A stretch of 64,000 bases of DNA from an uncultured Thermoleophilia bacterium (GCA_963814545.1 CAWFDC010000011.1:208928-272927); one strand, 5' to 3'. Positions 5,842 to 57,480 are shown, numbered from the stretch's first letter. The notes: generated by a model not told the origin, from the sequence alone. Numbers and translations: made by a program.

Positions 5842-6247
5842 TCAGCCCTTGACGAGCAGCAGCGGGACGGAGCTGTGGTGTCGCACGTGCTCGGCCGTGC
5901 TGCCCAGCACGAGACGCTTCGCCCAACCGTGGCCGTGCGTCGCCATGGCGATGAGATCGGCGCCGAGCTCCTCCGCCTCGCGCACGATCACCTCGCCGGG
6001 CTCGCCGGCGACGAGCAGCGTCTTCACGTTCACGCCGCGGGCGCGCAGCTGTCTCGGCGGCGCGCTCGATGTCGCGCTCGGCGTCCTCGAGCTCGCAGGC
6101 GCGCTCGTCGCGGGTGTGGAAGTGCGCCACGCGCAGCAGGGTGACCTCAGCGCCGCACACCGACGCCAGCTCGGCCATGTGCTCCAGCACCGGCTCGTCC
6201 GTCCGGGTCCCCTCGACCGGAACGAGGATGCGCTCGTACAGTCCCAT
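5842..6247 (-). pseudogene. Universal stress protein (UspA family) interrupted by a 1-nt indel near 6052
   Basis: The N-terminal half MGLYERILVPVEGTRTDEPVLEHMAELA...DIERAAE is in one frame (5765..6247 ORF). The C-terminal half RQLRARGVNVKTLLVAGEPGEVIVREAEELGADLIAMATHGHGWAKRLVLGSTAEHVRHHSSVPLLLVKG is in another. The junction gagAcagctg has one extra nucleotide. Confidence 0.7.
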
Positions 6248-6251
6248 CGCC

Positions 6252-7541
6252 TCAGCCTCCGAAGACGGTCTGGTAGAGAAGGAAGACGTTCAGTCCGATG
6301 ATGATGCCCGCCAGCACTAGTCCCGTGACCGTCTGCACAGGACCCATGCGCTCGGCGCCCATCACCCGCCGGCTGCGCGACAGCCAGAGCAGCGGCAGGA
6401 TCGTGAACGGCAGCTGGATGCTCAGCATCACCTGACTGGCGATCAGCGCTCGGTACGTGTCGACGCCGAGCACGATCACGAACATCGCCGGCAGCGACGT
6501 GGCGATGAGCCCAATCCGGTACGCGCGGCTGCGCGGGTCTTCCGGCTTGCCCAGGTAGCCGGTGACGACGTTGGCCTCGGCCAGCGACGACGTGATCGAC
6601 GAAGCGAGGCCCGCGACGAGCAGCGCGAGGCCGAACATGAAGCGCGCCAGCGGACCGACGAGCGGCTCCAGCGTCTCCGACGCCTGCTCGATGCTCGTCA
6701 CCTCGGCGCCGTAGCGGTAGAAGACCGCCGCCGCGACGATGATCATCGCCGAGTTCACCAGCCACCCCATGCCCATGGCCAGCGTGGTGTCGATGAGCTC
6801 GAAGTTCATCACCCGCCGGCGCCGCTCCGGGGTCAGGTCCCAGTCCCGCGACTGGATGACGTTGGAGTGCACGTAGATGTTGTGCGGCATCACGATGGCG
6901 CCCAGCATGCCCAAGGCGACGAAGATGCTGGCGCCGTCCAGCGACGGGACCACCCAGCTGGGCGCCGCCGCCGCCCAGTCGGGGTCGACGATGAACAGCT
7001 CGACGACGTAGCAGCCGGCGATGATCGCGAGGAAGACGACGATCATCCGCTCGAGACGGTGGTAGGCCTGCCCGAGGATGGCGAGGAAGACGAGGCCCAC
7101 GGTGATCGGTGCCCCCAGCCAGAGCGGGATGCCGAAGAGGAGGTAGAAGCCGAGGGCCGCGCCGAGGTACTCGGCGATGTCGGTGGCGATGCAGGCCAGG
7201 ACGATGGTCACGCCGGCGACCCAGACGACTGGCCGCGGCAGGTTGGCGCGCACGTTGACGGCCAGGGAGCGCCCCGTGACGATGCCGAGCTTCGCCGAGA
7301 GGTGCTGCAGGAAGATCAGCATGAGCGTGCTGAGCGAGACGACCCAGAGCAGGTCGTAGCCGAACTCGGAGCCCCCGGCGATGTTCGTCGCCCAGTTGCC
7401 CGGGTCGATGAACCCGATGGTGACGATGAAACCGGGCCCGAGGTAACGCAGCAGCTCGCGCGAGAAGAGGTCGTGCAGGAAGCCCCCCGCCGGCGGGCCG
7501 GGGGGCGGGCTCACGGCGGGTTGTCCGGTACGGTCTGTCAC
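6252..7541 (-). CDS. mntH: NRAMP-family divalent metal (Mn2+/Fe2+) transporter MntH
   Basis: The intact 429-aa ORF has the NRAMP signature GPGFIVTIGFIDPGNWATNIAGGSEFGYDLLWVV and roughly 11 predicted TM segments. Confidence 0.85.
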   Translation of the reverse strand: MTDRTGQPAVSPPPGPPAGGFLHDLFSRELLRYLGPGFIVTIGFIDPGNWATNIAGGSEFGYDLLWVVSLSTLMLIFLQHLSAKLGIVTGRSLAVNVRANLPRPVVWVAGVTIVLACIATDIAEYLGAALGFYLLFGIPLWLGAPITVGLVFLAILGQAYHRLERMIVVFLAIIAGCYVVELFIVDPDWAAAAPSWVVPSLDGASIFVALGMLGAIVMPHNIYVHSNVIQSRDWDLTPERRRRVMNFELIDTTLAMGMGWLVNSAMIIVAAAVFYRYGAEVTSIEQASETLEPLVGPLARFMFGLALLVAGLASSITSSLAEANVVTGYLGKPEDPRSRAYRIGLIATSLPAMFVIVLGVDTYRALIASQVMLSIQLPFTILPLLWLSRSRRVMGAERMGPVQTVTGLVLAGIIIGLNVFLLYQTVFGG

Positions 7542-7666
7542 GCCGGTCCTTGATTCGCGGCAACTCTACCCCAAGCGACGGCGCGCGAGATTGAAAGAGC
7601 GGTGGTCGACGGGCCGTCTGAGAGGCCGGCCAGAGCCCGCGGCGCGACGAGTTCGAACACTGTGAC

Positions 7667-8329: not shown

Positions 8330-8354
8330 CGTCGCCGAGTCACGGCACGAAGAA

Positions 8355-8384: not shown

Positions 8385-8415
8385 TTGGCTCAGTGCTTCG
8401 CTTGGTGAGTCGTGC

Positions 8416-10391: not shown

Positions 10392-10421
10392 TCGTTCGAT
10401 GCTTGTTCGCTGGGGTCGTGC

Positions 10422-12206: not shown

Positions 12207-13374
12207 CTACCGACTGGATTGTCGACTGTCAACACTCAGCCGTCGAACGGACGATCCGCGACGGGCGGGAGCGGGTGGATGTACCCCTGGCGCGGGGCAG
12301 TGTGACGACTCCCGACGCCGGACGCCAAAGAGGCAGGCCGGGCGGCGGCGCACGCTGCGCTGCGCCGCCCGGCCTGCCTGTTGGCGCAGTCTGATGCTCA
12401 TCTTGCCCGACTTGATGACGCCCCACATCCACTCCGTCATCGCCTGCTGCTCGGCGATCAGGTCGTACCGGGTCTCGCCGCTCACGACGAGGCCGCCACA
12501 CTCGTGGTCGACGGTAAGGACCTTGTCCCGGCTCAGGATGCCGAGGACCGCCTCGGTGAGCTGCGGCAGCATCGGCTGCTTGCGGACGGCCTCCTCTTCC
12601 TCACGGTCGAGCGTGTAGGCGAGGACGTTCTTGCCGATGATGCCGTACATCTTGTCAGGCCAGACGCCGCTTCTGAGGTAGGGCCTGAGTCCCCTGAAGT
12701 CGTTCACGTACGTGACGCCAGGCTGATCCATGAGGATCGACGACGAGCCCCAGCCGCCACTGAACAGCGCCTCGGTGCCCGGGTCGTCGGGGTCCGTGTC
12801 CTGGTCCCTCAGCTGCTCGGTGATAGACACGTCGCCGCCGTCCTCCACGAGGGAGGCGAACACCGCCGGCGTCGCGTCCGAGAGCTCGAGATCGGTGACA
12901 AGGCCGGTGGCCTTGCCGACCGACTCGGCGCGCTCGAGGACGGTCTCCCACTCCTCGATCTCGCCGCTTGCCGGACTCGGGCCCATCGCGACCCAGTCGT
13001 TCCATGTCGTCATGCCCGTCGAGAGCCGTCCCTCCGGCCGCGACGTCAGTGACTGCCGTGTCGTCGGACAGAGAATCGTCAGGGTCGCCGAGCGACCTCG
13101 TGTCGGTGTTGCCCTCGCCGCCCCACGGTATGTCGTCGATCAGCAGCGAGCCGCCGTTGAGTTGCCGGCCGACCTCGAGGTGGTCGACGGCCATGCCGTC
13201 ACCGATGAAGAGCATCACGTTGTCGACGCCCTCGAGCGGCGACGATTCCGGGACCGGGCCGGCAGCAGCCGCCTTGCCCTACCCGGCGGCCAGCCCGACG
13301 GCGGTGAGCAGTGCGAGGGAGGTGACCACCGCCACGACGACCCCGAGACCGGAACGCTGATGATGCCCGCTCAT
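12207..13374 (-). pseudogene. phoA: Alkaline phosphatase (PhoA family) decayed: in-frame TAG, frameshift, active-site Ser replaced, C-terminus truncated
   Basis: The signal peptide MSGHHQRSGLGVVVAVVTSLALLTAVGLAAG is followed immediately by TAG (~13279). Next come NVMLFIGDGMAVDH (the E. coli IILLIGDGMG region) and VTDVAAGGTAL where E. coli has VTDSAASATAW, so the Ser nucleophile is Val. A frame switch near 13015 leads to GKATGLVTDLELSDATPAVFASLVE and GDVSITEQLRD, which match PhoA. The ORF ends soon after LTVDHECGG. Confidence 0.6.
12217..12235. promoter_or_regulatory. Operator-like site B: GATTGTCGACTGTCAACAC
   Basis: Tandem TGTCGAC and TGTCAAC heptads lie about 210 bp upstream of the PHP gene B start and directly after the phoA remnant. 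Confidence 0.5.
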
Positions 13375-13578
13375 CGCTTCCCTCTTCCCCTTGGCGCCGC
13401 GCATCCGGCGAAGCGGCGAGCATAGGTTCACGACACTCGCAGCGCTACGCGCAGACTTCCGATTCGGCAAGGAACGCGACACCGGCGCCTCCTTCGGCAC
13501 CGGCACGACCCGCCGTGAGAATGTCACCCGCGCTGCCCTGAGCCGACCTTGGCCATCTCGCGGTGCCCGCCCCCGCCC

Positions 13579-15978: not shown

Positions 15979-17120
<1,142 letters not shown>

Positions 17121-17147
17121 TGTCGCCTCCTCGTGCACCGGCCGCAG

Positions 17148-18045
17148 CTCAGTCCAGCTGGTTGAGTTTGGTCAGGAAGTAGGCGATCACCGCGATCACC
17201 GCCATCGCCGCCGAGCATGAGCAGGCTCAGGGCGGATCCGGTACCCCAATCGCCGATGACGACCATGAGGTCGGCCACGGAGTTGCCGAGCATGTAGGAC
17301 GACGTACCGCCGACGAGGCCGGGGGTGGCGAAGTCCGTGAACAGCGGGATGTAGACGAGGATCACCGCCACGAAGATGCCGGGTGCCGCCAGCGGGAGCA
17401 GGATACGGCGCCAGCGCGTGAACCAGCTGGCGCCGAGATCGGTCGCCGCCTCGAAGAGGCTCGGGTTGATCGCCTTCATGGACGCGTAGATGGGCAGGGC
17501 GCAGTAGTTCACCCAGCTCGTCGACAGCACCAGGATCACCGAGAACTTGGTGAACAACAGCCAGTCGACCGGGACGTTGACGATGCCGGTCCACATCAGG
17601 AAGTCGTTGATCAACCCCTCCCGCCCCAGCAGCATGCGCCAGGCGTAGATGCGCACGATGGGGTTGAGCTCGTCGACGAGCACCAGCAGGAGCAGGAGCG
17701 GAAGCTCCCAACGGCCCGCCTTGAAGGCGATGAAGTACGCGAGAGGAAAGGCGATGACAAGCTGAACGGCCATCGCCGTGCTGGCCATGATCAGCGTGTC
17801 CCTGGCCACGCCGCGGTAGATCGGGTCGGTGAAGAGGTTGCGGAAGTTGTCGAGCGTCCAGCCGGTCTGGAACCCGTAGAGCGTCTCGTGCGGAAGCTCA
17901 TGATCAGCAGGATGACCAGCGGCGCGATGAAGAACAGCGCCAGGACCGCCAGCGGACTCGTCAGAAACGCCACCGGGCGCAGCGTCTTGACCGCCCGGGC
18001 GCGCAGGTGGCGGCCCTCGGAGACAGGCGGAGCCATGCTGGCCAT
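17148..18045 (-). pseudogene. potB: ABC transporter permease (PotB-like) with two single-nt frameshifts
   Basis: The N-terminus [51 protein letters not shown] switches frame (~17895, missing C in a CCC run) into [20 protein letters not shown]...[11 protein letters not shown]...[26 protein letters not shown]. The C-terminus [17 protein letters not shown] switches again (~17205) to the predicted end [19 protein letters not shown]. The ATG overlaps the potC stop (TGATG). Confidence 0.65.
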
Positions 18046-18964: not shown

Positions 18965-20087
18965 CTAGCTCCTCTTCACCTCTTGCCACACCTTGATCCA
19001 CTCGTCATACCCCTCTTCGGGAGGCGCGGCCGGCACGATGTTGGTCCAGTCCTTGACGATCCCGGCCTCTGCTTGCTTCTCAGGCGTCAGCAAGGGGATC
19101 GTGGTCGACAGTGTGGGGAGGTAATCCCACTCCGTCACCTCGAAGGCCTGGGCCTCGGGCGACAGGTAGTAGTCGATCAGGGCGTACGCGGCGTCGACGT
19201 TCTGGCAGGTGCTGCTGATGCCGTACCCGCAGGTCCAGACGATCTGCCCCTCTTCGCACGTCGTGAACTCCACAGGATCGCCCTCGTCCTGCGCGTTCTT
19301 CGCATTGCTGGGGTACCCGAGGCCGAGCGAGATCTCGCCGGTGTGGAAGAGCGCCACGATCTCCGAGTCGTTCGAGAAGAACGTGCGGAACTGGCCGCGC
19401 TGCTTCGCCTCGATGTACAGGTTCTTCACGTTCTCCAGCTGCTCGGAGCTCAGGTTGATCGGATCCTCATAGCCCAGGGCCAGCGCGCCCACCTGGATGG
19501 CCGTCATCGCGTAGTCGATCATCGCGACCTGGCCCTCGTACTTCGGGTCGAACAGGTCCATGAACGAGGTCGGCGTCTCCGTCACCTTCGTGGTGTCGTA
19601 GGCGATGCCGGTCACCCCGGCGTCGACGGGCGCCACGTAGTGCTGCCCGTCCCCCGACGTGACCCCCGGCAGGTCCGTCATCACGGGGAACATCTCGCCC
19701 CAGTGCGTCAGCCGGCTGATATCGAGCGGCACCACGAGACCGAGTCTCACGGCCCTCTCGGCGTTCTCTTCCACGCAGAGGTTGATGACGTCGGCCTCGA
19801 ACCCCGCACGCAGCTTGGCGACGGCGGCGTCGCCGTCTTCGTAGGCGCTGGCCTTGAGGTCGACATTCGGGTATTTCTCGTAGAACCCCGCGAGGTACTC
19901 CGGCACGAAGCCGTCCTCGTAGGCGAACACGGTGAGCTGGCCGGAGATGTCCTCGGGCTCCGGGGTGGCGCTGGTGCTCGGTGCCGGAGCGGCGGTCTCT
20001 TCGTCGCCGCAGGCACCGAGCAGCAGAGACGCCACCGACCAGGACGGTCACGAGCAACACAGTCCACAGGTGTGTCTTCGTGCTCAC
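18965..20087 (-). CDS. potD: Polyamine (spermidine/putrescine)-binding periplasmic lipoprotein PotD/PotF-like; 1-nt frameshift inside the signal peptide
   Basis: The mature part LLLGACGDEETAAP...QLTVFAYEDGFVPEYLAGF...KDWTNIV is a continuous 356-aa ORF. The signal peptide VSTKTHLWTVLLVTVLVGGVS (GTG ~20087 after AAGGAGG) is in another frame, with the junction near 20025. The lipobox is LLGAC. Confidence 0.65.
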
Positions 20088-20164
20088 ATCAAACCTCCTT
20101 GGAGGGGCGTCTTCGCCGCCCATGCGTGGCGCTGAACGAAGCAGGCCTGTGCATGCTACATAGT

Positions 20165-20184: not shown

Positions 20185-20221
20185 TATTGCGGCCCGGTCG
20201 CCGCGGTGCTAGCGTCGCTTC

Positions 20222-20912
20222 ATGATGAGTGGCGGTGACTTCACGGTCGAGCATGCCCTGGCGGTACTGATGAGTGCCCGCGGCGTGGACGCGTGGGGAG
20301 CGGCGGCGACCGCGCCAAGCTGGCCGGCGGCGCCGCCCCTGCCCACGGCGGTCTCGTTCGCCCTGGCGCTCCGCCCGGCCTCGCTCGAAGGCCTCGAGCG
20401 AGGCCCCAACGGACGCCGAGGTCGATGAATACCGCCGCGTCAACGACGAGCTGATCGAGATCGGCGAGGCGTGTGTGGCGCTCTTCCGTGCGCACGGCCA
20501 CGAGGGCGAGCGCGTCGACGACGACGCCCCGGACGGCCCGACGGACCCGGAGATCTTCGCCTCGAAGACGGCGGCGACGCAGGCGGGCCTCGGCTGGATC
20601 GGCAAGACCGCCCTTCTCGTGACCCCACGAGTTCGGCTCTGCCGTGCGTCTCGGCACCGTCTTCACGGACCTGCTGCTCCCCACGGGGACGCCGGTCACG
20701 GCCGGGCGCTGCGGCTCCTGCCGGGCCTGCGTCGACGCCTGCCCGGTCGATGCCGGACGGGACGTGACGTGGCAGCGCAGGTGTTCCACGGAGCACCCTC
20801 TACGACTGCGCTGCCTGCGATGCCTTCCAGCTCAGCTTTCCCGACCACGACGAGATCTGCGGCATCTGTATCTGGGTCTGCCCGTACACGAAGCGCGCCT
20901 TCCGTCGCTGAC
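20222..20912 (+). pseudogene. Epoxyqueuosine reductase QueG-like 4Fe-4S protein, fragmented by three or more frameshifts
   Basis: Pieces in three frames: TAATQAGLGWIGKTALLVTP (QueG hallmark GLGWIGK), RLGTVFTDLLLPTGTPVTAGRCGSCRACVDACPVDA, and TLYDCAACDAFQLSFPDHDEICGICIWVCPYTKRAFRR. Junctions are near 20400, 20640 and 20775. Confidence 0.5.
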
Positions 20913-24367: not shown

Positions 24368-24826
24368 CTACTCCTCACCCCTGAGCTTCTTCATCGCCGC
24401 CTTGACGGCGTCGCTGTCGACCGCCAGCTCGACGAAGCCGATGCGCTCGTCGTAGATCGCCGGGTCGACCTGCTCGCGCAGGTCGTCCTCGAAGATGTGC
24501 ACCACGGGGAGTCCCAACTGGACCCCTGCCAATGGACCGACGTAACTCGGGTCGCCTTCGGTGACCGTCTCGGCGACCATCTCGAGTCCCTCGAGATCGG
24601 CCGCCCCGAGCACCACCACCAGGTCGTCAGTGCCGTACCGCTCCACCGTCGACTTGATGCGACCCTGGTTCTCTGGGTCCATCGCTCCCGCCGCCGTTCA
24701 GACGAAGCACTCCGTCTCGATCATGACGACGTCGGCGCCCGCCGTGCGGACACAGTCGGCGATCGCCTCTCCCGAGACGCTGTCGCGCTCGCCCAGGGCG
24801 ATCACCTTCTTGCCCTTGAGATCCAT
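24368..24826 (-). CDS. grdA: Glycine/sarcosine/betaine reductase complex selenoprotein A (GrdA); in-frame TGA at 24698..24700 read as selenocysteine
   Basis: From ATG ~24826 (RBS GGAGG): MDLKGKKVIALGERDSVSGEAIADCVRTAGADVVMIETECFV-TGA-TAAGAMDPENQGRIKSTVERYGTDDLVVVLGAAD...GPLAGVQLGLPVVHIFEDD...KLRGEE. This is colinear with GrdA (CFV-U-TAAGAMD). The ORF track shows only the post-UGA part (24368..24682). Confidence 0.75.
24661..24679 (-). other. Candidate bacterial SECIS hairpin for grdA: GACCC-AGAGAACCA-GGGUC on the mRNA
   Basis: A stem-loop begins about 19 nt 3' of the UGA codon, the position expected for a SelB-binding element. Confidence 0.4.
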
Positions 24827-25150
24827 CACTCACCTCCCTCCACCAGCCTGCCGACAGCGGCCTCCACCTCGGCCGCCGAAGGGTTCCCGCTCAGACGCTC
24901 GACTTCGACGCCGTCGCGGTAGAGCACGAACGTGGGCATGGCGATCGACCTTCAGGTCGCGAGCGATCTGACGGTTCTCGGCGGCGTTCACCTTGACCAG
25001 CGTGAACCTGCCCTCGCACTTCTTCTCGAGCTTCTCGACCGCCGGCATGAGCGCCAGGCACGGCACGCAGCGCGGCCCCCAGAAGTCGACCATCACGTTG
25101 CCCGACGCGACGAGCGCGGGGAACGAATCCACGGTTGCGTCGACTGCCAT
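24826..25150 (-). CDS. trxA: Thioredoxin (TrxA), with one frameshift near 24945
   Basis: The N-terminus MAVDATVDSFPALVASGNVMVDFWGPRCVPCLALMPAVEKL carries the WGxxCxxC active site and runs to ...IARDLKV. The C-terminus SIAMPTFVLYRDGVEVERLSGNPSAAEVEAAVGRLVEGGE is in the +1 frame. The stop overlaps the grdA ATG (TGATG). Confidence 0.7.
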
Positions 25151-26467
25151 TCACACCTCCACGATCACGGAGACCGCATCCCACATCTGGGTCATGCGGC
25201 CGAGGAACAGACTGCCCTTCGCCATCAGCATCGTCGACGTCAGCTCGCCACGCGCGAAGCGATCCAGGGCATGCGGGATCCAGGGCACCGCTGAGGCGAT
25301 ATGGCCCTGGGTCGGCGAGAAGCCGGGCAGGCCGCGACGACGACAGAAGTCGTTCATCTCGTCGCGGCCCAGCTCGCCGCGCGTCACGGCGAGGGCCGCC
25401 AGCAGCTTGTAGTTGCGCTCCGGCACGTCGTAGCCGCCGGCCGGCTCGGTGATCTCCGGGTTGTGGAGCTCCGTCGAGTACACGTCGATGTCGGCCACCT
25501 TGCGCCCGAGCTTGTCGAGCGGCACGCCGACGACCTCCTTGAGCAGCGACTGCTGCGAGGAGTCGCTGCCGATACGGTGCTGACCCACGGCGTCGAGCCG
25601 CAACCGGGGGCGTCGCCGCCGGCCGGCCCCACGCAGGACGGCCATGCCGGCGAGCACGTCCTCGAGCACGGGCACGCCCCGGTCGAGAGTGCCCTTGAAC
25701 TTCATGCCGAGCTTGGCCAGCGACCCGCCGGCGACCACCACGACGCGCTCGAAGGTGCCGGACTCGACGAGCGCGCCGGCCATGATGAGAGCGTGCACCG
25801 GGCTGGTGCAGAAGGCCTTCACGTCGCTGCCGTTGGCGTTCACGAGGCCGCAGCACTCGGCGATCGCCTTGGCGAGCGCGCCGCCGCCGCGGTTGTAGCG
25901 GTCTCCCACCGCCTCTTCGCCGGCGCCGATCGCGTACCGGATCGACTCGGGGTCGACACCCGAGTGGGCCAGCATGGCGCGCAGCGCGTGCACCCCGCCC
26001 GCCTTGCAGGAGAGGTTCTCGAGCAGGGCGTGGGCGCTGAGCGCCGCGTCCTCGTCGTGGGCGCGCACGAACGCGCCCACGACCTCGCCACCGTCGAAGA
26101 GCGTCAGATCGCCTCTGTCGGGGCGTGCCTCCTCGCCCAGGCGCACGAGGTCGAAGAGGTCGACCTCGTCCATCAACTCGTAGAAGGAGCGCTGGTCGGC
26201 GATGTCGCCGTACGGTCCGGCCGCCGGGGCGGAACCGTCGATCCCCTCCCACCAGGGCCGCTCGCGGCTCCACAGCTCCTCGGGCCTGAGGTTGCCGATG
26301 AACGCCTGGTTCGGGGCGTAGCCGCAGGCCTGCTCGAACGTTCGCAGCTTGTCCTGCACGGTCGCGAACTTCTCGGCCTCGCGCGCCGGCTTGGAGCCGA
26401 AGCGCACCAGGTCCGGCACGTGGTCCAACACGAACGACGCGGCTAGGATCCCGGCACGCCGCGTCAC
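25151..26467 (-). CDS. Putative glycine reductase complex protein C subunit (GrdC/GrdD-like, thiolase/KAS-like fold)
   Basis: A continuous 438-aa ORF sits between grdB and trxA. The thiolase-like segment DVKAFCTSPVHALIMAGALVESGTFERVVVVAGGS suggests protein C. Its stop abuts the trxA ATG. Assignment is by operon context and motif only. Confidence 0.45.
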   Translation of the reverse strand: MTRRAGILAASFVLDHVPDLVRFGSKPAREAEKFATVQDKLRTFEQACGYAPNQAFIGNLRPEELWSRERPWWEGIDGSAPAAGPYGDIADQRSFYELMDEVDLFDLVRLGEEARPDRGDLTLFDGGEVVGAFVRAHDEDAALSAHALLENLSCKAGGVHALRAMLAHSGVDPESIRYAIGAGEEAVGDRYNRGGGALAKAIAECCGLVNANGSDVKAFCTSPVHALIMAGALVESGTFERVVVVAGGSLAKLGMKFKGTLDRGVPVLEDVLAGMAVLRGAGRRRRPRLRLDAVGQHRIGSDSSQQSLLKEVVGVPLDKLGRKVADIDVYSTELHNPEITEPAGGYDVPERNYKLLAALAVTRGELGRDEMNDFCRRRGLPGFSPTQGHIASAVPWIPHALDRFARGELTSTMLMAKGSLFLGRMTQMWDAVSVIVEV

Positions 26468-37991: not shown

Positions 37992-39287
37992 AGGTTCCTC
38001 CTGGAATCCGGGGAGGTCTTGCCGCCGTTCGACGGGTCGACCCTGTCGTCGAAGTACACGGCCGGCGCTGGTGGGCGCAGGCAGTGGGGCATCTGCATGG
38101 CCTGGTTGTAGCCTCCGACGTTGATGCAGGCGACGATCTCACCCTCCTCGACCTCCGGGAATGGGTAGTCCTCGGCCCAGAGGTCGTCGCCCTCGTTGAT
38201 GTGGCCGGTGATCGTGGTCGCCACGGTGCGTGGGGCATCCGCGCGCCCGCAGACGACGTACTCGAACGGGGCGTCGTAGATGAAGCGGTCGTTCATGACG
38301 TTCCAGCCCATGTCGAGGCCGACGAAGCGCGAGCCCATGCGATCCTCGACCGTCACGACCTCGCCGAGCAGGACGGCCGCCTCCTTCACGAGGTAGTCGC
38401 CGGGTTCGACGATCACGGTCACGCCCAGGGCGGCGAGGTGCTTCGCCAGCATCGCCGCCCAGGCGTCCACGTCGAGAGAGACGTCGCCCGGCTGCCATGG
38501 GCACGCCGAGACCACCGCCGACATTCAGGTTCTGTATCGGGCAACCCTCGGCGCGTGCGGCGCGGACCATGGCGGCGGCACGCTCCACGGCGACTTCGAA
38601 CGCTGGCAGAGCCTCCGTCAGGTACCCGTCGCCGACATGGAAGTGGACCGTATCGACGATGAGTCCGTGGCGCCGGGCCAGCGCCACTGCCTCACCCAGC
38701 TGCTCCGGGTAGATGCCGAACTTCGTCGGGCGGCGACTGCTGTAGAGCGACTCGTTATCGCCGCGCCAAGCCGCGCCGGCGCGAGGGTTGACCCGCAGCC
38801 CGATGGTGCGACCCGGCGCACGCCTGCCGACACGCGAGATCTGGGTGAGGAGGTCGAGGTTCAGGTGCACGGCGTGCGCGAGGATGACGTCGAGATCGCG
38901 ATCGCTCAGATTGGTGCCCGTGTAGCTGATCTCGCCCGCGTGCCAGCCGTGCTCGAGGCCGTGCAGCAGTTCTCCCGGCGAGCAGACGTCGAGGCCTACG
39001 CTCGCGGCCGTGCCGGGCGCGCCGAGGGCGCGCACGAAGGCGAGCACTTCTGATTCGCGTTGTGCCTTCAGGGCGAGAAGCACCCGGCGCCGCAGGCCGG
39101 CCCGTTCGAGAGCGACCTGCAGCGAAGCGACCTGATCGCCGACGCGCTGCAGGTCGAACACGTAGACCGGCGTCCCCTGGGTGCGCGCGATCGACTCGGC
39201 GTCGCGGCCGGCGACCTGAAGCCGCCCGTCGCTCACTTCGAGACCGGGTCGCACCCAGAAGTCGCGCTCGCCTCCCGTGACGGCCAT
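37988..39287 (-). CDS. PLP-dependent Orn/Lys/Arg/DAP decarboxylase (fold-type III), one frameshift near 38508
   Basis: The N-terminus from ATG 39287 (RBS GGAAGGA) runs ...HFHVGDGY...NLNVGGGLGV. It then continues in another frame as PWQPGDVSLDVDAWAAML...EYVVCGRADA...CINVGGYNQAM (37988..38524 ORF). The junction has an extra C in a CCC run. Confidence 0.65.
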
Positions 39288-39334
39288 GCGTGGTAGCTCC
39301 TTCCCTGTGAACGCTCTTCACGCTAGAGCACAAG

Positions 39335-39481: not shown

Positions 39482-40790
39482 ATGCCGCCGAACGATAGTG
39501 CGCAAGCCCTCGACGTACTCCTCGACCGAGCGGCTGCCCTCGCCCTGGATTCCGGCTGCGAGGTGAAGCGAGAGCTGCTGGAGAGTCCGCCTCCGCTCGA
39601 TACGCCGTCCGCCGTCAGGAGAGAGCTCGGAGCCCCGACCGGGTCGTCTCGCCTCGCGAGCCTGGCGCGTGGCCGCAGGCGGGCGGCCATCGTCACGAGC
39701 GACTCGACGCGGGCGGTGCCGAACCGCGAGCTGCTTGCTGGCGGTCCTGGACGAGCTCGCGCGCGCGCGGTCTCGCGGCCGAGGCCGTCACGCATCGTCG
39801 TCGGCGGCGGAGCGCACCGGCCGCTCGACCGGCGGGAGTTGCGCGACCTGGTCGGCGTGGAGCTCGAACGCACGGTCAAGGTGGTGGCCCACGACGCGCA
39901 CCGCAGCGACTGCGTCTCCGGTCGGGCGGACACCGCTCGGCAACGACGTGCGCATCAACCGGCGCCGTCGCCGACGCCGACCTGGTCATCGCCCTCGGTG
40001 TCGTCGAGGTCCACGAGTTCGCGGGGTTCACGGCAGGACGCAAGTCCATCCTGCCCGGAGTGGCCGCCTACGAATCGATCATCCACAACCACAGTCTGAC
40101 GCTCCTGGAGCACGCCGCGGCCCGCCCCGGCGTCCTCGCGGGCAATCCGATCCACGAGGAGATGGTGGCTGCCGCGAGGGCTGGCTGCGCTGCGAGTTCG
40201 TCGTCAACGTCGTGCTCGACGGACGCAATCAGGTGGTCGCCGTGGCCGCCGGTGACCCTGAGGCCGCTCACGGGCGGCTCGTCGAGTTCGTGCGCGCGAC
40301 GCAGACCCTGTCCACGACGTTCTGAGGCCGACATCCTCGTCACAGGCCCGGATCGTCCGCTCGACATCAACTTCTACCAGTCCGTCAAGTCGCTGGTCGC
40401 TCTCGAGCCGCTCGTTCGCGACGACACGACAGTGGTCTTGCTCTCGAGTCTGTCGCGAGGGCATGGGGAGCGACGAACTGCTGACTCCGTTCGCGCACGC
40501 CGGAAACCCGCAGGCCGTCATGCGAGCGGCGGCCGACGACTACACGGTGGAGAAGGATCACAGCTATCTCCTGGCGCGGTTCATGACTCGCGGGCCCCAC
40601 GTCGTCGCCTGGTGCCCGGGCGTCGCTCCAGATGACCTGCGGACGATTGGCCTCGAGGTCAGCCTCCACTCCGGAGGAGGCGATGACGCGCGCCGTCGAG
40701 CGGCAGCGGCTCCACCGCACGCGCCCGCGTGCCCTTCTCTTTCCCCGACCTCAGCGCGCGCTCTGCCTCGCTTGCCTCGTCTCGGATCAC
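39482..40790 (+). pseudogene. LarA-like (lactate racemase / DUF2088 family) gene fragmented by four or more frameshifts; 3' end approximate
   Basis: Pieces in several frames: RRAAIVTSDSTRAVPNRELL, VLDELARA, IVVGGGAHRPLDRRELRDLVGVELERTVKVVAHDAHRSDCV, EVHEFAGFTAGRKSILPGVAAYESIIHNHSL...GNPIHEEMVAAAR, FVVNVVLDGRNQVVAVAAGDPEAAHGRLVEFVRATQ and ADILVTGPDRPLDINFYQSVKSL...GSDELLTPFAHAGNPQAVMRAAADDYTVEKDHSYLLARFMTRGPHVVAWCPGV. Confidence 0.45.
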
Positions 40791-40819
40791 ACGTCAATCC
40801 CACCCGAAGGATGTCGTCG

Positions 40820-42130
40820 ATGAAGACTTCGATCACCGCCGTCCACGCCCGCCAGATCCTCGACTGCCGCGGCTACCCGACCGTCCAGGTCGACGTCTGG
40901 GCCGGCGCCGCGCCCGGCGAGCCCGGCGCCTTCCACGGCCGCGCCGCAGTACCGTCCGGTCGCTCGACCGGCGCCGCCGAGGCCGTCGAGCTGCGCGACG
41001 GCGGCACCGAGTACCGGGGCTTCGGCGTTACCCGCGCCGTCGGCAACGTCAACGAGGTCATCGGTCCGGCCGTGGCCGGCCGGGACGTCCAGGACCAGGC
41101 CGGCCTCGACGCCTTCCTCTGCGACCTCGACGGCACGCCTCGCAAGGCCCGCCTCGGCGCCAATGCCCTCGCCGGCGTGTCGCTGGCCGCGGCGCACTGC
41201 GCCGCGGCCGTCCGCGGCCTGCCGCTGCACCGCTCGCTGAACGGGCGCTCGCGCGTCCTCCCCGTGCCCCTCATCAACCTCGTCGGCGGCGGTCGCCTCA
41301 CTTCCAACGACCTCGCCTTCCAGGAGTTCATCATGATGCCGGTCGGGGCGCGCTCCTTCGCCGCGGCCATCCGCATGGCCAGCGAGTGTCACATGGCGCT
41401 CGAGGAGATCGTCGTCTCGCGCTACGGCAAGCTCTCCGCCAACACCGGGGACGAGGGCGACTTCGCGACGCCCATCGTCGACGTACGTGAGGCGCTCGCC
41501 GTGGTCCACGAGGGCGTCGCGGCTGCGGGCTACGCCGACGACGCCGTCTACGCCCTCGACTGTGCCGCGACCCACCTCTGGGACCCGGCGAGCGAGACCT
41601 ACGCCGTCGGCGGGGAGCGACTGTCCACCGCCGCGATGATCGACCTCTACCGCGAGCTCGTTCGCGACTTCGGCATCGCCAGCATCGAGGACCCGCTGCA
41701 CGAGGAGGACTGGGAGGGTTGGGCCGAGCTCACCGCGGCGCTGCCCGACACCCAGTTCGTCGGCGACGACCTCCTCGTCACCGACCCGGCGCGCGTGCGC
41801 CGCGGCGTCGAGGCGGGCGCCGGCAACGCGCTGCTCTGGAAGTTCAACCAGATCGGCACCCTGACCGAGGCCTTCGAGGCCGCGCACATCGCCGTGGGGT
41901 CCGGATGGGGCGTGTGCGTCAGCGAGCGCTCGGGCGAGACCGAGGACCCGAGCATCGCCGACCTCGTCGTGGCGCTCGACGCCGGGCAGATCAAGACCGG
42001 CTCGCCGGTGCGCGGCGAACGCACGGCCAAGTACAACCGCCTGCTCGAGATCGAGGAGTGGCTCGGGGCCGACGCGGTCTACGCCGGACGCGAGTTCCGC
42101 CATGCCCCGATCGCGGCGGCCGGCGACTGA
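40820..42130 (+). CDS. eno: Enolase (phosphopyruvate hydratase) paralog
   Basis: MKTSITAVHARQILDCRGYPTVQVDVW...AAVPSGRSTGAAEAVELRDGG, then SERSGETEDPSIADLVVALDAGQIKTGSPVRGERTAKYNRLLEIEEWLG, are canonical enolase N- and C-terminal motifs. The 437-aa ORF is intact. Confidence 0.8.
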   Translation: MKTSITAVHARQILDCRGYPTVQVDVWAGAAPGEPGAFHGRAAVPSGRSTGAAEAVELRDGGTEYRGFGVTRAVGNVNEVIGPAVAGRDVQDQAGLDAFLCDLDGTPRKARLGANALAGVSLAAAHCAAAVRGLPLHRSLNGRSRVLPVPLINLVGGGRLTSNDLAFQEFIMMPVGARSFAAAIRMASECHMALEEIVVSRYGKLSANTGDEGDFATPIVDVREALAVVHEGVAAAGYADDAVYALDCAATHLWDPASETYAVGGERLSTAAMIDLYRELVRDFGIASIEDPLHEEDWEGWAELTAALPDTQFVGDDLLVTDPARVRRGVEAGAGNALLWKFNQIGTLTEAFEAAHIAVGSGWGVCVSERSGETEDPSIADLVVALDAGQIKTGSPVRGERTAKYNRLLEIEEWLGADAVYAGREFRHAPIAAAGD

Positions 42131-42131: not shown

Positions 42132-43488
42132 GTGGTGCGCTTCGAGGACGCCGCCGGGCTGACCGGGCACGGCCGCGAGGCCCTGCGCCGCGACGCGCTG
42201 GCGATCGCGGCGCAGGCTCTCGCCGCAGTCGACCCGGTGGCGGCGGCGCGGCGTCTGCTGCGCGTCGAGGGCGACGTGCTGCACATCGGCGACGACGCCT
42301 ACGACCTCGGCGGCCGCGACGTCTACGTGCTCGGCGCCGGCAAGGCGACGATCGGGCTCGCCGCGCTGCTCGACGAGCTCCTCGGCGCGCGCCTGCGCGC
42401 CGGCGCCGTCGTCGTCAAGCGCGGCCAGGGCCGCCCGCTGCGCCACATCGAGGTCATGGAGGCCACGCACCCGGTGCCCGACGCGGACAGCCTGCGCGCC
42501 GGCGAGCGCCTGCTCGAGCTCGCCGGGCAGACGCGGCCCGAGGACCTGGTGATCGCCGTCGTCACCGGCGGCAGTTCGGCCCTCGCCGTCGTCCCGGCCG
42601 AGGGCATCACCCTTGAGGAGAAGGCGACGACGAACCGGCTCCTGCTCGCCTCCGGCCTCGACATCGTGCGCATGAACGACGTGCGCAAGCACATCTCCCG
42701 CCTGAAGGGGGGACGCCTCGCGGCCGCCTGCGGCTGCGAGATCGTGAACCTCACCGTGTCGGACGTCGTCGGCGACCCGCCCGACTACTTCACCGACCTG
42801 ACGGCCGCCGACCGCTCGACGTTCGCCGACGCGACCGCGGCGTGCGACGCCGCCGGACTCTGGGAGCGGCTGCCGGCGGCCGTCGCGGCACACCTGCGCC
42901 GCGCCGACCCGGCAGCCGAGACGGTCAAGGTCCTGCCCCGCGTGCACGACCACATCGTCGCCACCTCTGGGATCATGTGCAACGCGGCCGCGGCGGCCGC
43001 ACGGGCCCTCGGCTACGCCGCCGAGGTGCTCACGCTCGAACTCGAGGGCGAGAGCGCCGCGGCCGGGCGGTGGATGGCCGATCGGCTGCGCGTGGCCGGC
43101 GCGGGCACCGCGCTGATCGCCGGCGGCGAGACGACGGTGACCATCGCCGATGCTGCCGGCGGGTCGCCGGGCGTGCCGGAGCAGACCGCTTTGGGCGGCC
43201 CGAGTCAGGAGACCGCCCTGGCCGGCGCCCTGGCGCTCGAGGGCGGCCCTGCCGCCTGCCTGCTCTGCCTCGACTCGGACGGCAGCGACGGGCCGACCGG
43301 GGCCGCCGGCGGATTGGTGGACGACCTGACGGCGGAGGCGGCGAGGGCGGCGGGCAGTCGACCTGCCCGCCGCCCTCGCCGCCCATCACGCCGGCCCCGT
43401 GCTGCGCGCGGCGGGCGACCTCGTCGTCACCGGACCGACCGGGACGAACGTCAACGACCTCAGGATCGGCCTCACCGCCAGGGACTGA
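42132..43488 (+). CDS. Glycerate 2-kinase (MOFRL family), one frameshift near 43350
   Basis: ALAVVPAEGITLEEKATTNRLLLASGLDIVRMNDVRKHISRLKGGRLAA matches MOFRL. After ...LTAEAARAAG the frame shifts to VDLPAALAAHHAGPVLRAAGDLVVTGPTGTNVNDLRIGLTARD (TGA ~43488). Confidence 0.65.
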
Positions 43489-43506
43489 CGGCGGGCCGGG
43501 CCCGCG

Positions 43507-46719: not shown

Positions 46720-48650
46720 TCAGCCCGCCCCGCCGCCGCCCCCGCCGCCCCCTCCTCCGCCGCCCCCGGAGAAGCCGCCGCCCCCGCCACTGCCGCTCGA
46801 GGCGGTCCCGGCGGCGACGGCCCCCGACAAGCCCGAGCTCAGCGACGACAGCGGCGAGCTGCCGTGCGACGCGGTCACGAGGAAGGCGGTGGAGCCGAGG
46901 CGGTCGTCCTGCAGCACCTCGGGCGCGACCATCTTGAGGTCGTCCACGACCTGGTCGGCGATGCCGAAGACCACGGCCAGCACCAGGTAGTACCGCCAGA
47001 GCACGACGGAGTCCGGCGGCTTCTCGCCCATCCGGCCGAAGTCCTTCATGTAGTTGCGCATGCCGCGGTACTTCGCGTACAGCTCCGCCGCCTCGGGCGA
47101 GCGCCGCTTGATCGCGCGGGCGCCGATCAGGATCGCCACGCCGACGACGGCGCCGACGGCGTACCGCAGTTGCTCCGAGATCGACGACCGCGCCGACCGA
47201 GCCCGCGATGGCCAGCCCGCCGAGCGCCCAGGGTCCAGCCGTGGGCCGTGGTGCTGCTCTTCTCCAGGAGACCGCGGGCATTGGCCTCCCTCGTCACCGC
47301 GGCGCGCCACTCGGCCCACGCCGCGGCGAACTCGCTGCGATGCTTCTTGGCGAGATCCTTCATCTCGTCGACGTCGAGGGTGTCGCCCTCCGCCAGCACG
47401 TCGAAGAGCACCTCCAGCAGTCGCGCCTCGAAGCCGGACGCCTCGGCTCGGCGCTCGGGGCGCAGTCTCAGCAGGTAGCTCTCCTCGTCGCGCGCACCGA
47501 AGAGGCCGCGCTTCTCGCGACGTGGTCCGCTCGAGCTCGACGACGCCGCGGTCGATCAGGTCCATCAGCGTCGCCACCGCGTCCTCGTCCTTGACCGCGC
47601 CCATGCGCCAGAGCGAGCCGACGAGGGCCGGCGGCAGGGCCGGCTCGGGCAGCTCGCGGTAGTACTCGCCGGTGAAGCTCGGCCGGTACTCGCGCCCGTA
47701 GCGGCGGTACGCCCAGATGAAGACGACGAGCGCGGCGAGCGGCACGCCGACGCCGATCACGAGGCCTGCCGCCCGGCGAAGCCAGAGGAGTGCGCCGCTC
47801 GGCGTTGGCCTCGTCGGCCCACTGCTGCTCCTCGGCGAGCACGGCGTCCACGCGAGAGCCCGCCGTCGCCGGTGCATCGGCGAGCGCCTCCCGCGGGAAG
47901 AGGATCCGCGCCTCGACGAAGCGATACGCCGGGAGGTCCTCGACCGTCAGGCTGACCGACCCATCGGGCTCCCGCGTCACGACGCCGTTGAGCGGACCGT
48001 GGCCCCAGGCGCGGACCTCATCCTGCTCCGACGCCGGGAGGCAGCGTGATGCGGATGTCCACGCTGCCGACACCGTGATCCCAGTCGTCGCCGATGAACT
48101 TCCAGTACAGCTCGGCCGTGTCGTCCCACTTCGTCGCGGCGTCGCGGACGACGTACTCGATCGTGACCGGCACGAGCGCGTCGACCTGCCGGAAGTAGAC
48201 TTCGAGGCGCACGTCGCCGCCGCCCTCGCCGGCTGCCCACCAGGTCTGCGGCGGGCGGCTCGCCGGGTCGTCGGTGCGCGCGTACTCGCCCTCGGGGCCG
48301 CTCACGCGCGCGCACCTCGATGCCCGACGACCCGGCCCCCTCGAGGTCCCAGTAGACGAAGCTGAAGTCGCCGTCGAAGTCGAAGACCTGCGGGTCTCGC
48401 GCACGACCATGTCGCCGCCGGGGCGCACCGTCGCCTCGATCGTGACCTCCGGCATGCTGTACGACTTGGCCAGGACCGTCGCCGGCAGGCCGAACGAGAC
48501 CAAGGCGGCTGCGGCAGCAAGAAGCGCGGTGAAGAAGATCCGCGGGAGGATCCGCGGGCGGTGATCGCGTGGCCGCGCCGCGCGGCCACGCGGAAGCCAG
48601 ACCGTCCAGCCGAGTCCGACGGCCGCGGGCCCGGCCGGCCTCGCCGGCAT
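46720..48650 (-). pseudogene. DUF2207-family membrane protein broken into seven or more frame fragments
   Basis: The N-terminal beta-sandwich (SYSMPEVTIEATVRPGGDMVVRETR...QVFDFDGDFSFVYWDL...RVSGPEGEYARTDDP...LEVYFRQVDALVPVTIEYVVRDAATKWDDTAELYWKFIGDDWDHGVGSVDIRITLPPGV), middle (EQDEVRAWGHGPLNGVVTREPDGSVSLTVEDLPAYRFVEARILFPREAL; LLWLRRAAGLVIGVGVPLAALVVFIWAYRRYGREYRPSFTGEYYREL) and C-terminal part (MLFDVLAEGDTLDVDEMKDLAKKHRSEFAAAW; YLVLAVVFGIADQVVDDLKM...GGGGGFSGGGGGGGGGGGGGAG) are spread over different frames. Confidence 0.5.
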
Positions 48651-49300
48651 CAGGACTCCCTCCCGTTCGGGCCGGTCACGCCGCCTGTCGTCTGAGCGCC
48701 TGCGGCGAGCCCGAGGCGCGCGAGCTCGGCCGCGGCCAGCCCGTCGTCGTCGCCGCGTTCCAGCGCGGCCCAAGGGTCGGGCTCGACGGCGTGCAGCCGG
48801 TCGTACGGGAGCGCGACGACCGCCCGCAGGGCGAGCACGCGCTGCAGGGCGGGCGTCTGCCCGTCGCGCGCGCAGGGCCTCGCGCACCGCGGCGACGTCG
48901 CGGCGCCACGCGAGGCGCATCGGCAGGTACAGCGGAACGAGGACCAGGGTCGGGAGCAGACCGACGGCGATCGCGACCAGCACGCTCATCTCGCGGATCG
49001 CGTCGGCGCTGGCCCGGCCGCTCGCCTCGACCTCGGTGCCGGCGGTGACCACGCGCTCGGCGACGGTGCCGATGTCGTCGCCGACGAACGGGATCGCCGA
49101 GAGGGCCTCGAAGCCCTCGCCGGTGGCGCGCAGCGTCGCCCCCACGCGCGCGACCTGGTCGGCCAGGTCGACCTGCTGGGCGATGTCGCGACCGATCGCG
49201 ACCCCCAGGGCCGCCCAGACGACGACGTAGACGACGATGACGATGTCGAGGACGCGCACCGCGCGCGCGCTCGGGAACTGCCACCCCATGCGGCCCATCG
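48650..49300 (-). CDS. Hypothetical membrane protein, one frameshift near 48840
   Basis: MGWQFPSARAVRVLDIVIVVYVVVWAALGVAIG...LVLVPLYLPMRLAWRRDVAAVREALRARRAD continues in another frame as LRAVVALPYDRLHAVEPDPWAALERGDDDGLAAAELARLGLAAG. Boundaries are approximate. Confidence 0.35.
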
Positions 49301-54874: not shown

Positions 54875-54887
54875 GGAGGGGGACGAG

Positions 54888-56087
54888 ATGACTGACGACA
54901 CTGCGGGTTGGGGGCTGCCGTTCACCAGGGAGGAGTACGCGGCACGCCTCGAGCGCACGCGCGAGGAGATGGCGCGTAAGGGCGTCGAGCTGCTGTACGT
55001 GACCTCGCCGCCCAACCTCTACTACCTGCTCGGCCACCAGTCGGTCTGGTGTGACGGTCGCAACGTGACCGGGCTGGCCGTCCCGCTTGATGCCGCCGTC
55101 AAGCCGGTCATGTTCGACACCTGGGACCATGCCCCCGGCTGGTCACCGGTCGTCGAGGACGGCGTCACCTACGGCGAGGAGGGCTTCTACTACCCGGAGG
55201 GTCCCGAGGTCGTGGCGGCGACGCTGCGCGGCCGGGGGTTGCTCAAGGGGCGCGTCGGGCTCGAGTGGTGGAGCTGGGCGCCGGGCGGGCCGGCCCTGCA
55301 GGAGCTGGCCGGCCGGCTGGCCGGCGCCGGCGCCGGCGAGGTCGTCGACGGCTCGTGGATCGTCGACCACGCGCGCCTCGTGAAGTCGCCGAAGGAGACC
55401 GAGTACACGCGCAAGGCGCTCGAGATCGCCGACGCCGCCTACGAGGTCCTCGCCGCGACCCTCGCGCCGGGCATGACGGAGAAGGAGATCATGGGTCTCC
55501 TGTACTACGAGTGCGCGAAGCGTGGCGGCGACGAGCCCGGCATCCGCATGATGGTGCGCACCGGGCCCAACACCTTCAACTTCCACCACCCCGCGACCGA
55601 GCGGCGCATCGAGCAGGGCGAGTTGCTGATGATCGACATGTCGGCGGCCTACCACCACTACCACGGCAACACGGCACGGGCGCTCTCGCTGGGCGAGAAC
55701 CCGTTCTGGGCGGAGAAGCTGGCGAAGCTCGCCGCGGCACGCGACGAGACCGTGGCCCTGCTGCGGCCGGGCGATCCGACGCAGAGGCTGCAGGAGCTGA
55801 TGGACGCGGCGGTCGACGCCGCCGGAGGCCTGCGCGAGTACGTCTGGTGGGTCGGCGGCTATGTGCTCGGCGCGACGATGCCGCCGGACTGGGTCGGCCA
55901 CGTGTACCTGAACGACGAGGAGGGCTTCGAGAAGGGCGTCTTCGACCCCGGCTTCGTGGCCAACTGGGAGGTCCAGATCTGGGACATCCCGCGTAAGGAG
56001 GGTGTCGGCGTCATCGACACGATGATCGCGACCGAGACCGGGGTCGAGATCCCGGCCCGGTTCCCGGCGACGCTCACGGTGGTCTGA
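54888..56087 (+). CDS. M24-family metallopeptidase (Xaa-Pro aminopeptidase/creatinase-like)
   Basis: Creatinase N-domain followed by the pita-bread domain (LMIDMSAAYHHYHGNTAR; HGVGH-like VGGYVLG). The 399-aa ORF is intact. Confidence 0.65.
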   Translation: MTDDTAGWGLPFTREEYAARLERTREEMARKGVELLYVTSPPNLYYLLGHQSVWCDGRNVTGLAVPLDAAVKPVMFDTWDHAPGWSPVVEDGVTYGEEGFYYPEGPEVVAATLRGRGLLKGRVGLEWWSWAPGGPALQELAGRLAGAGAGEVVDGSWIVDHARLVKSPKETEYTRKALEIADAAYEVLAATLAPGMTEKEIMGLLYYECAKRGGDEPGIRMMVRTGPNTFNFHHPATERRIEQGELLMIDMSAAYHHYHGNTARALSLGENPFWAEKLAKLAAARDETVALLRPGDPTQRLQELMDAAVDAAGGLREYVWWVGGYVLGATMPPDWVGHVYLNDEEGFEKGVFDPGFVANWEVQIWDIPRKEGVGVIDTMIATETGVEIPARFPATLTVV

Positions 56088-57480
56088 TGGACAAGGCCGA
56101 GACCCGCGGCGGCGCGAGGAGCGCCGGCGCCGCGGACCGGCGGACGCACGGCTCCGGTGCACCTGCCGGACTGTCGAGCGCCCTCGAGGAGCGCGTCGTC
56201 GCGGCCGTGGCGGAGGGGCGCGACGAGTTGGTCGCGCTGGCGCGTGAGCTCGTCGCCCTCGACACCACGGCGCGCGAGACCGGCGACCCGCCGCGCGACG
56301 AGGAGCGCCTGCAGCGCCTGCTCGAGGCGCGCCTGCGAACGGTCGGCGCAGAGACCGACCTCTGGGAGCCTGATGACACCGGGACCGGCGACCGGCACGT
56401 GCCGGACGGGCTGACGTTCGAGGGGCGGCCGCAACTCGCGGCCCGTCTCGCGGGCCGGGGCGGCGGCCGCAGCCTGCTCCTCAACGGCCACATCGACGCC
56501 GTGTCGGCCGAGCCCAGGGAACTGTGGTCCAGTGACCCGTTCGCCGGCCGCAGTGCGCGACGGCCGCGTCTACGGGCGCGGCATCGCCGACATGAAGGGT
56601 GGGCTCGCCGGCATGCTCTTCGCGCTCGAGGTACTGCGCCGGCTCGACGTGCGTCTCGCCGGCGAGGTCGTCTACTGCACCGTCACCGACGAGGAGTCCT
56701 CGGGAGCCGGCGGCTGGGCGGCCGTGCGCCGCGGTGTCAAGGCCGACGCCGGGGTCGTCGCCGAGCCGACCGACTTCGACGTCTGGGTCGCCTGCCGTGG
56801 ATCGCTCACGCCGACGATCACCGTCGAGGGCCGCCCCGGCCACGCCGAGATGCGCCAGCCGCACTGGCGCGACGGCGGCGCCGTCAACGCCATCGAGAAG
56901 ATGAAGCTCGTGCTCGACGCGATCGAGAGACTCCGCGAAGAGTGGCGCGCGCGTCCCGACATGCAGCACCCGTACCTGAATGCCGGCGATATCGTACCGA
57001 CGGTGATCTCCGGCGGCGAGTGGGAGGTCACGTACCCGGCGAGCTGCCGCCTGACGTGCGAGGTGATCTATCCACCGGGGCAGGTCGGGGACGGACGGCA
57101 CGGCGCGCGGACTCGAACGCGAGATCGCCGAGACGATCGAGAGCGCGGCACGCGTCGACCCCTGGCTCCGCGAGCACCCGCTCAACTGGTTCTGGGACTG
57201 CGACGTCGTGCCCGCCGAAGTCGACCCTGCGCACCCCATCGTCACGACGGCGCTGGGGGCCGGCGCGGCCGCCGGCCGCGCCGGCCACATCAGCGGGTTC
57301 GACAGCTGGCACGACGGCGCGACCTTCACCAACTTCGGCGGCACGCCCAGCGTGTGCTTCGGGCCCGGCCCCGCCGACACACTGCACCGCATCGACGAGT
57401 GGGCGGGCATCGACGACCTCGTCGACTTCGCCGCCGCGACGGCGCTCCTCACGATGCGCTGGTGCGGCGTTATCGAGTGA
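56087..57480 (+). pseudogene. M20-family peptidase (ArgE/DapE-like) with two frameshifts (~56525, ~57085)
   Basis: The N-terminus ...LLLNGHIDAVSAEPRELWSSDPFAG shifts to AVRDGRVYGRGIADMKGGLAGMLFALEVL...CTVTDEESSGAGG...PTDFDVWVACRGS...ISGGEWEVTYPASCRLTCEVIYPPGQV. It shifts again to ...EIAETIESAARVDPWLREHPLNWFWDCDVVPAEVDPAHPIV...SWHDGATFTNFGGTPSVCFGPG...RWCGVIE. Confidence 0.6.

Follow-up and report, generated by a model that had tools for sequence, protein, structure and literature searches.

In our study, a window of 64,000 nucleotides (nt) from an uncultured Thermoleophilia bacterium (GCA_963814545.1 CAWFDC010000011.1:208928-272927) was examined for the frameshifts that interrupt otherwise conserved protein-coding genes. 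An earlier note on this window had listed 13 such genes and had left the cause between indel errors of an assembly and recent pseudogenisation. We found that the frameshifts in 12 of the 13 genes are very probably assembly artefacts, and that pseudogenisation applies to the alkaline phosphatase gene phoA only. The 12 affected genes are intact in the organism and evolve under normal purifying selection.

Spectrum, clustering and reversibility of the indels

Each indel was fixed to the base and polarised by multiple nucleotide alignments with eight to nine close relatives of 85-92% nt identity. A total of 42 short indels were private to the window; 38 of them were located in 12 protein genes and three were intergenic, and the remaining one, in usp, was taken from a protein alignment instead of a nucleotide alignment to relatives. 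None of the 42 events was common to any relative in the alignments across the window. The earlier note had counted about 30 indels; the indels are real, and the genes and positions were nearly right (each position to within about 5-30 nt, with the frame decoding described below and the alignments in agreement), but the count was somewhat low. All the events were 1-2 nt long, and 39 insertions (37 of one nucleotide and two of two nucleotides) were found against three one-base deletions (binomial p = 6e-9). Natural bacterial indels are biased towards deletion. The observed spectrum, with its 39:3 ratio and its 1-2 nt lengths, was therefore unlike that of natural mutation, in which deletions equal or exceed insertions and the lengths vary; the insertion bias is the reverse of the bacterial one, which argues for an artefact.

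The events were strongly clustered, as had been claimed. The variance/mean ratio per kb was 3.15, against 0.98 expected, and none of 10,000 permutations gave a value as high. Four stretches, at 16.5-17.9, 20.0-20.8, 39.7-40.8 and 47.1-48.9 kb, make up about 8% of the window and contained 31 of the 42 events. In the alignments to relatives, no private frameshifting indel was found in positions 1-5800, 7040-16500, 21000-24900, 26000-38400 and 49400-54800. The intergenic events, all of them 1-nt insertions placed by alignment to relatives (54884, 61449 and 63860), show that the process was not confined to genes, and the cluster in potA crosses the gene border into potB.

The classic Nanopore error is an indel in a homopolymer. 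A concentration of the events in homopolymers was tested and was not seen. Only 4 of the 37 single-base insertions made a run of at least three identical bases, whereas the window has 111 runs of at least five, and at 23 of the 37 an identical neighbouring base was absent. The statement that several breaks lie in homopolymers was thus not borne out.

All 12 genes became single full-length ORFs (open reading frames) once the private insertions were removed and the three lost bases were put back, and after this correction Pfam domains bridge the former break points. The ratio of nonsynonymous to synonymous substitution (dN/dS) was calculated by the Nei-Gojobori method against the nearest relative. 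The affected genes ranged between 0.11 and 0.26; their median was 0.19, and that of 32 intact genes was 0.15 (Mann-Whitney p = 0.31). The third-position share of the differences in potA and potB was 0.67-0.69. Relaxed selection, in the form of dN/dS moving towards 1 or a lost third-position bias, was not seen in the 12 frameshifted genes. The two comparisons proposed in the earlier note, of dN/dS and of orthologues in relatives, therefore speak against pseudogenes; the orthologues were intact and shared none of the indels. In potA, which contains five events in 540 nt, private substitutions amounted to 1.9%, against 2.1-2.6% in its neighbours, and the divergence of the gene is among the lowest locally. 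No excess of private substitutions was seen in potA or in the clusters. A decay long enough to gather 5-12 indels in a gene would be expected to leave many unconstrained substitutions as well, which again argues against pseudogenes.

In metabolic reconstruction, the potABD importer (an ABC transporter of spermidine/putrescine type) and the thioredoxin of the glycine-reductase cluster should be counted as intact, together with LarA, glycerate kinase, the decarboxylase, the M20 peptidase, Usp and the DUF2207 protein; the one real loss is that of the alkaline phosphatase. The value of these results is practical, for annotation and for users of metagenome-assembled genomes (MAGs), and does not lie in biological novelty.

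Sibling assemblies and the origin of the insertions

The G+C content of the window is about 70%, so that long ORFs occur in all frames and ORF lists alone say little. The frames were decoded with a codon-usage model, trained on clear long ORFs, in a Viterbi decoder whose states explicitly included frameshifts and in-frame stops. Without any use of homology, frame switches were placed at 6052, 12299, 13035, 16849, 17888, 20625, 20794, 24946 and 38525, followed by 39935, 40456, 43356, 47224, 47517, 47797, 48851, 56552 and 57069. Syntenic loci in Thermoleophilia MAGs were obtained by scanning species-representative genomes with the potC-like protein. Among them, L001, L002, L003, L005, L006, L007 and L009 are Nanopore MAGs of Microflora Danica (MFD), and L004 is a short-read soil MAG assembled with MEGAHIT (k141). 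Further loci, L081-L088, were reached through protein searches and then exact-protein look-ups. L081, L082 and L083 are metagenome contigs of the Joint Genome Institute (JGI), about 91% and 80-88% identical to the window; L084 is an 814-kb contig from the European Nucleotide Archive (ERZ25039603, contig_18261), 91.6% identical over window positions 27989-47740. The window from 49 to 64 kb was covered by L085 and L086 (JGI) and by L087 and L088 (MEGAHIT).

Private indels were found to be abundant in the sibling MAGs. Within the same 15.3 kb, the private insertions and deletions were 49:5 in L009, 35:3 in L003, 14:0 in L006, 7:0 in L002 and 1:1 in L001, and 2:1 in the MEGAHIT assembly L004, which had no frameshift calls. 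L009 and L003, both species representatives (locus about 1-15340), contained 54 and 38 private indels of 1-2 nt, or 3.5 and 2.5 per kb. These events were clustered too (variance/mean 1.8-2.0) and mostly had no adjacent identical base. A genome with 2.5-3.5 frameshifts per kb is not viable, and hence the indels of the siblings are not biological. The genes were intact at the short-read JGI and MEGAHIT loci L081, L082, L085, L087 and L088. L084 has an insertion of its own in the glycerate kinase gene, which cuts the product to 305 amino acids (aa).

The long-read MAGs of MFD come from Flye assemblies (--meta --nano-hq) that received a single Medaka round and no polishing with short reads, and their authors looked for Nanopore-associated errors in the MAGs of lower coverage (PMC12313526). 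According to an earlier paper of the same group, consensus quality with R10.4 reads needs roughly 40-fold coverage (PMC9262707). The ORFs P0051, P0361 and P0386 of the window are present in a public protein collection and derive from one contig of 398,805 bp, which is found at NCBI and ENA with no protein accessions. From this length, from the lack of protein accessions and from the nearest relatives of the window, which are MFD Nanopore MAGs, we infer that the contig itself is probably Nanopore-only. An identical copy of its MFS protein was found in a Logan contig of run ERR12035938. On this account, Nanopore reads would be the sole source of the contig, through the MFD long-read workflow or one equivalent to it (metaFlye and one Medaka round). 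The consensus would have been weakly supported in a few stretches of 0.7-1.7 kb, where spurious single bases would remain, and each extra base would shift the frame, so that gene callers would see 12 conserved genes as fragments or chimeric ORFs. We consider this explanation as a whole, that of insertion errors in a long-read consensus, to be highly likely.

The errors of Nanopore-only assemblies, as known from the IDEEL test (Sereika et al., 2022; PMC9262707), share with the events of the window that private single-base indels break conserved genes, that they depend on the assembly, and that short-read assemblies of relatives are without them. Homopolymer indels make up most of the documented errors, whereas 33 of the 37 single-base insertions in the window lie outside runs of at least three; nearly all the events are insertions, with no extra substitutions and in clusters of 0.7-1.7 kb. 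Four points weigh against an origin in a long-read consensus. The insertions, being outside homopolymers and free of a substitution excess, could not be assigned to a failure mode described in the literature. Strong clusters with long clean stretches between them are unlike a uniformly low coverage. The Nanopore-only origin of this particular contig is only probable, and the polarity of the events between 29 and 39.5 kb was given by one relative (L084) and by ORF integrity.

Usable coverage or strand balance that was locally reduced may lie behind the clusters, or else strain heterogeneity. As a form of the artefact, two strains or alleles may have been merged in the consensus, with the extra bases arising from the reconciling of haplotypes. 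Three of the affected places adjoin junctions of structural variants, at 5.8, 39.5 and 46.7 kb. L081 and L082 are without a 34-kb segment of the window; usp lies 250 nt in from its left end, and larA is found at its right end, at which the L081 larA allele is 69.5% identical in nucleotides, against 91% in the flanks. The DUF2207 cluster begins 460 nt from a 1.7-kb indel. Microdiversity, moreover, is stated to limit MAG quality in the MFD paper (PMC12313526). However, the clusters in potA and in the queG-like gene have no structural variant nearby among the relatives examined, adjacent polymorphic sites were no obvious source of the inserted bases when the alignments were checked by eye, and private substitutions were not in excess within the clusters. 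We regard a collapsed strain mixture as possible but doubtful.

Systematic errors of basecalling or polishing, tied to contexts such as homopolymers or methylation motifs and recurring wherever the context occurs, are unlikely. Five insertions stand just before (C)GAC (24946, 43359, 47181, 47517 and 48028), and two events lie in runs of C or G (61449 and 25605). The (C)GAC recurrence was judged by inspection only, and no convincing common motif was found at the insertions; the inserted bases and their flanks were heterogeneous, the insertions largely avoided the many homopolymer runs of the window, and long stretches of like composition were clean. Private-indel counts in orthologous bins of 300 columns were compared among five independent assemblies, and the correlations ranged from r = -0.16 to 0.13 (all permutation p > 0.2). 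As the clusters fall at different places in different assemblies, each assembly has its own, and the sequence does not drive them. The suggestion of systematic errors in specific sequence contexts is accordingly not supported, and error-prone regions shared across MAGs were rejected as a candidate.

Recent pseudogenisation, in which the 12 genes would be truly inactivated in this lineage as in reductive evolution, is very improbable. The events do pile up in certain genes, as in a dead gene (12 in larA and seven in DUF2207), and one gene of the window, phoA, is truly a pseudogene. However, the 12 indels of larA would need a long neutral time, yet the corrected protein aligns gaplessly at 92.7% identity with a dN/dS of 0.22. 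The equal dN/dS of affected and intact genes, the want of a private substitution excess in potA, the insertion bias, the still denser frameshifts of the sibling assemblies, the crossing of the potA/potB border and the intergenic events all point the same way. The pseudogenes of reductive evolution, as in Mycobacterium leprae or recent host-restricted bacteria, are likewise frameshifted conserved genes with several lesions each. The 12 genes differ from them in that dN/dS is not relaxed, a deletion bias and large deletions are absent, no lesions are shared, and the ORFs are regained on removing private bases. Programmed recoding, through a selenocysteine TGA or frameshifting, also gives apparent breaks in a functional gene; here the frameshift sites are not conserved and all the orthologues read straight through, so the frameshifts are not programmed. 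It is hardly credible that the indels are real and came, in very recent ancestors of this population and independently in its relatives, from a process that acts locally and is prone to insertion (such as tracts of error-prone repair or synthesis about 1 kb long), too recently for substitutions to gather.

Insertion errors of a long-read consensus, which we prefer to these alternatives, have consequences beyond the window. Several Nanopore-only species-representative MAGs contain 0.5-3.5 private frameshifting insertions per kb, and truncated or chimeric ORFs from such errors are already present in public protein collections (for example, P0051). Clustered errors outside homopolymers can be missed by homopolymer-aware correction or by a genome-wide quality score. 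Erroneous products of sibling contigs include a 336-aa decarboxylase fragment (P0331, from L001) and, from L084, a 593-aa MFS protein (P0372) and the 305-aa glycerate kinase.

The affected genes

The usp gene (universal stress protein; 5842..6251, minus strand) contained one extra base at about 6052, CAGCTG[T]CTCGGC, called by the Viterbi decoder. Without it, the 134-aa protein matches positions 2-141 of 141 of the Pfam Usp profile in one stretch and aligns without gaps, at 71-77% identity, to the Usp downstream of NRAMP in the JGI contigs L090-L092. The pair of an NRAMP-type metal transporter gene (6252-7541) and a usp gene after it is conserved across many unrelated contigs from metagenomes (L090-L106).

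The pot genes are all on the minus strand. The potA-like ABC ATPase gene (15979..17133) contained one-base insertions at 16567, 16722, 16728 and 16847 and a two-base insertion at 17103, which were missing from all eight relatives compared. The corrected ORF of 380 aa is 95.3% identical to that of L001 (dN/dS 0.125), with the Pfam domains ABC_tran and TOBE_2. The potB-like permease gene (17149..18030) contained an insertion at 17213 and a one-base deletion at 17889; its corrected product is 94.5% identical to that of L001 (dN/dS 0.152) and matches BPD_transp_1. In the gene of the potD-like solute-binding lipoprotein (18965..20092), an insertion at 20028 severs the signal peptide. The N-terminal lipoprotein signal is regained on correction, the dN/dS is 0.197, and the Pfam domain is SBP_bac_8. 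Next to them, the gene of a 4Fe-4S protein, called queG-like in the earlier note (20219..20911, plus strand), contained private insertions at 20404, 20628 and 20774; the corrected ORF has 229 aa and a dN/dS of 0.187, against 0.192 for the intact neighbour, and its Pfam match to Fer4 is weak.

In the glycine-reductase cluster, the thioredoxin gene (24826..25150, minus strand) contained a private insertion at 24946, GGCGAT[C]GACCTT. The corrected protein of 107 aa matches positions 5-100 of 103 of the Pfam Thioredoxin profile. The next gene (25151..26467, minus strand) had been called grdB and considered intact; it encodes DUF5940 and KAS-III-like domains and hides a compensating pair of events. 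A private deletion in a G run at 25605 and an insertion at 25634, 29 nt away, cancel each other, so that the ORF stays open with about 10 codons out of frame. This pair indicates that intact-looking genes of this assembly may still carry errors. An exchange of selenocysteine and cysteine in this gene was rejected, given its domains, and the split of the gene in L001 is due to a private insertion of L001 itself. The neighbouring gene grdA (selenoprotein A; 24368-24829, minus strand) contains an in-frame TGA at 24698-24700 within the canonical ETECFV-U-TAAGAMD motif. This TGA, which appears as a break in ORF lists, is a genuine selenocysteine codon, and is neither an error nor the mark of a pseudogene.

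The gene of the decarboxylase of Orn/DAP/Arg type (37988..39288, minus strand) contained a private insertion at 38494, placed by alignment to L084. Its orthologue P0241 is intact, with 432 aa and 91% identity, and the dN/dS is 0.165. The larA-like gene (39482..40823, plus strand) was the most affected, with 11 insertions, at 39740, 39767, 39792, 39918, 39961, 40182, 40193, 40320, 40449, 40657 and 40777, and a one-base deletion at 40762, all placed by alignment to L084. The four or more events noted before were real, and eight further ones bring the total to 12. The corrected protein has 443 aa, as does LarA of L084, with which its gapless alignment shows 92.7% identity, and the differences by codon position number 23/14/60. 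A reading of this larA as a divergent or decayed allele, raised by the L081 gene (69.5% nt and about 47% aa identity), was dropped in view of the 91%-identical orthologue in L084. The position of larA in L081 is 8599-9939, and the enolase next door is 96% identical to both L081 and L084. This difference between the alleles suggests, at the level of sequence, an allelic replacement at the end of an island.

The glycerate kinase gene (DUF4147 and MOFRL; 42132..43488, plus strand) contained one private insertion at 43359, GGCAGT[C]GACCTG, which was missing from L081, L082 and L084. The L081 orthologue is intact with 457 aa, and the dN/dS is 0.196. The gene of the DUF2207 membrane protein (46720..48650, minus strand) contained exactly seven events, in keeping with the seven or more claimed: one-base insertions at 47181, 47227, 47517, 47789, 48028 and 48309, and a two-base insertion at 48387. 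It was aligned with L081 and L082; the L081 orthologue is intact (639 aa), and the corrected ORF is 89.1% identical with a dN/dS of 0.217. The family was assigned from PF09972 and PF20990 in homologues. In the protein search, the best full-length matches were only about 45% identical, and a match at 88% was the window's own chimeric ORF. Adjacent to it, the gene of a 215-aa membrane protein (48650..49298, minus strand) contained a private insertion at 48868, from which an out-of-frame read-through into the N-terminus of DUF2207 makes a chimeric ORF of 426 aa (48018-49298, minus strand; P0051). The M20 peptidase gene (56087..57480, plus strand) contained private insertions at 56546 and 57093, which neither L085 (JGI) nor the MEGAHIT loci L087 and L088 have; the orthologues are intact with 447 and 460 aa, and the dN/dS is 0.109.

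The phoA remnant and other features of the window

The phoA remnant (12236..13390, minus strand) was compared by tblastn with two intact orthologues, from L002 (458 aa) and L004. It contained a TAG codon at 13279-13281, within the signal-peptide region, followed by a +1 frame switch at about 13025-13035 and a deletion of 52 codons (156 nt) at about 12521, which removes the metal-binding catalytic core DWGGHA...TADHE; about 88 C-terminal residues are also gone. The Pfam profile Alk_phosphatase matched the remnant over positions 3-122 of 423 only. L001 and L003 have no copy of the gene, and the copies of L002 and L004 are intact. The dN/dS of the remnant was 0.39-0.55, and the values across the clade were 0.39-0.70. 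These lesions include kinds that a one-nucleotide consensus error cannot make, which argues for a true pseudogene. With its stop codon, large internal deletion, truncation and loss in relatives, phoA fits the model of reductive pseudogenes, and it is likely to be a genuine but ordinary pseudogene in a clade that is losing the gene. The +1 switch at about 13030 could perhaps be a further consensus error, added to the real lesions.

Structural differences from the relatives were also found. The segment of 34 kb (window positions 5785-39480) contains usp, NRAMP, the AOR genes, the pot operon, the glycine-reductase cluster, the amine oxidase and the decarboxylase; in L081 and L082, which are without it, the gene of a HAD hydrolase (about 5035-5784 in the window) is directly followed by larA. 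The segment is present in L084 and partly in L001-L009, as a strain- or species-level insertion or deletion. At 46714-46720, the window is without a gene of about 1.7 kb that L081 (560 aa) and L084 (520 aa) carry between a 142-aa ORF and DUF2207, and which had no Pfam match. Two tandem genes of AOR type (aldehyde:ferredoxin oxidoreductase-like; 8192-10159 and 10358-12245) are 87% and 83% identical to parts of L001 that overlap each other, and the alignment suggests either a tandem duplication or a differential loss among the relatives.

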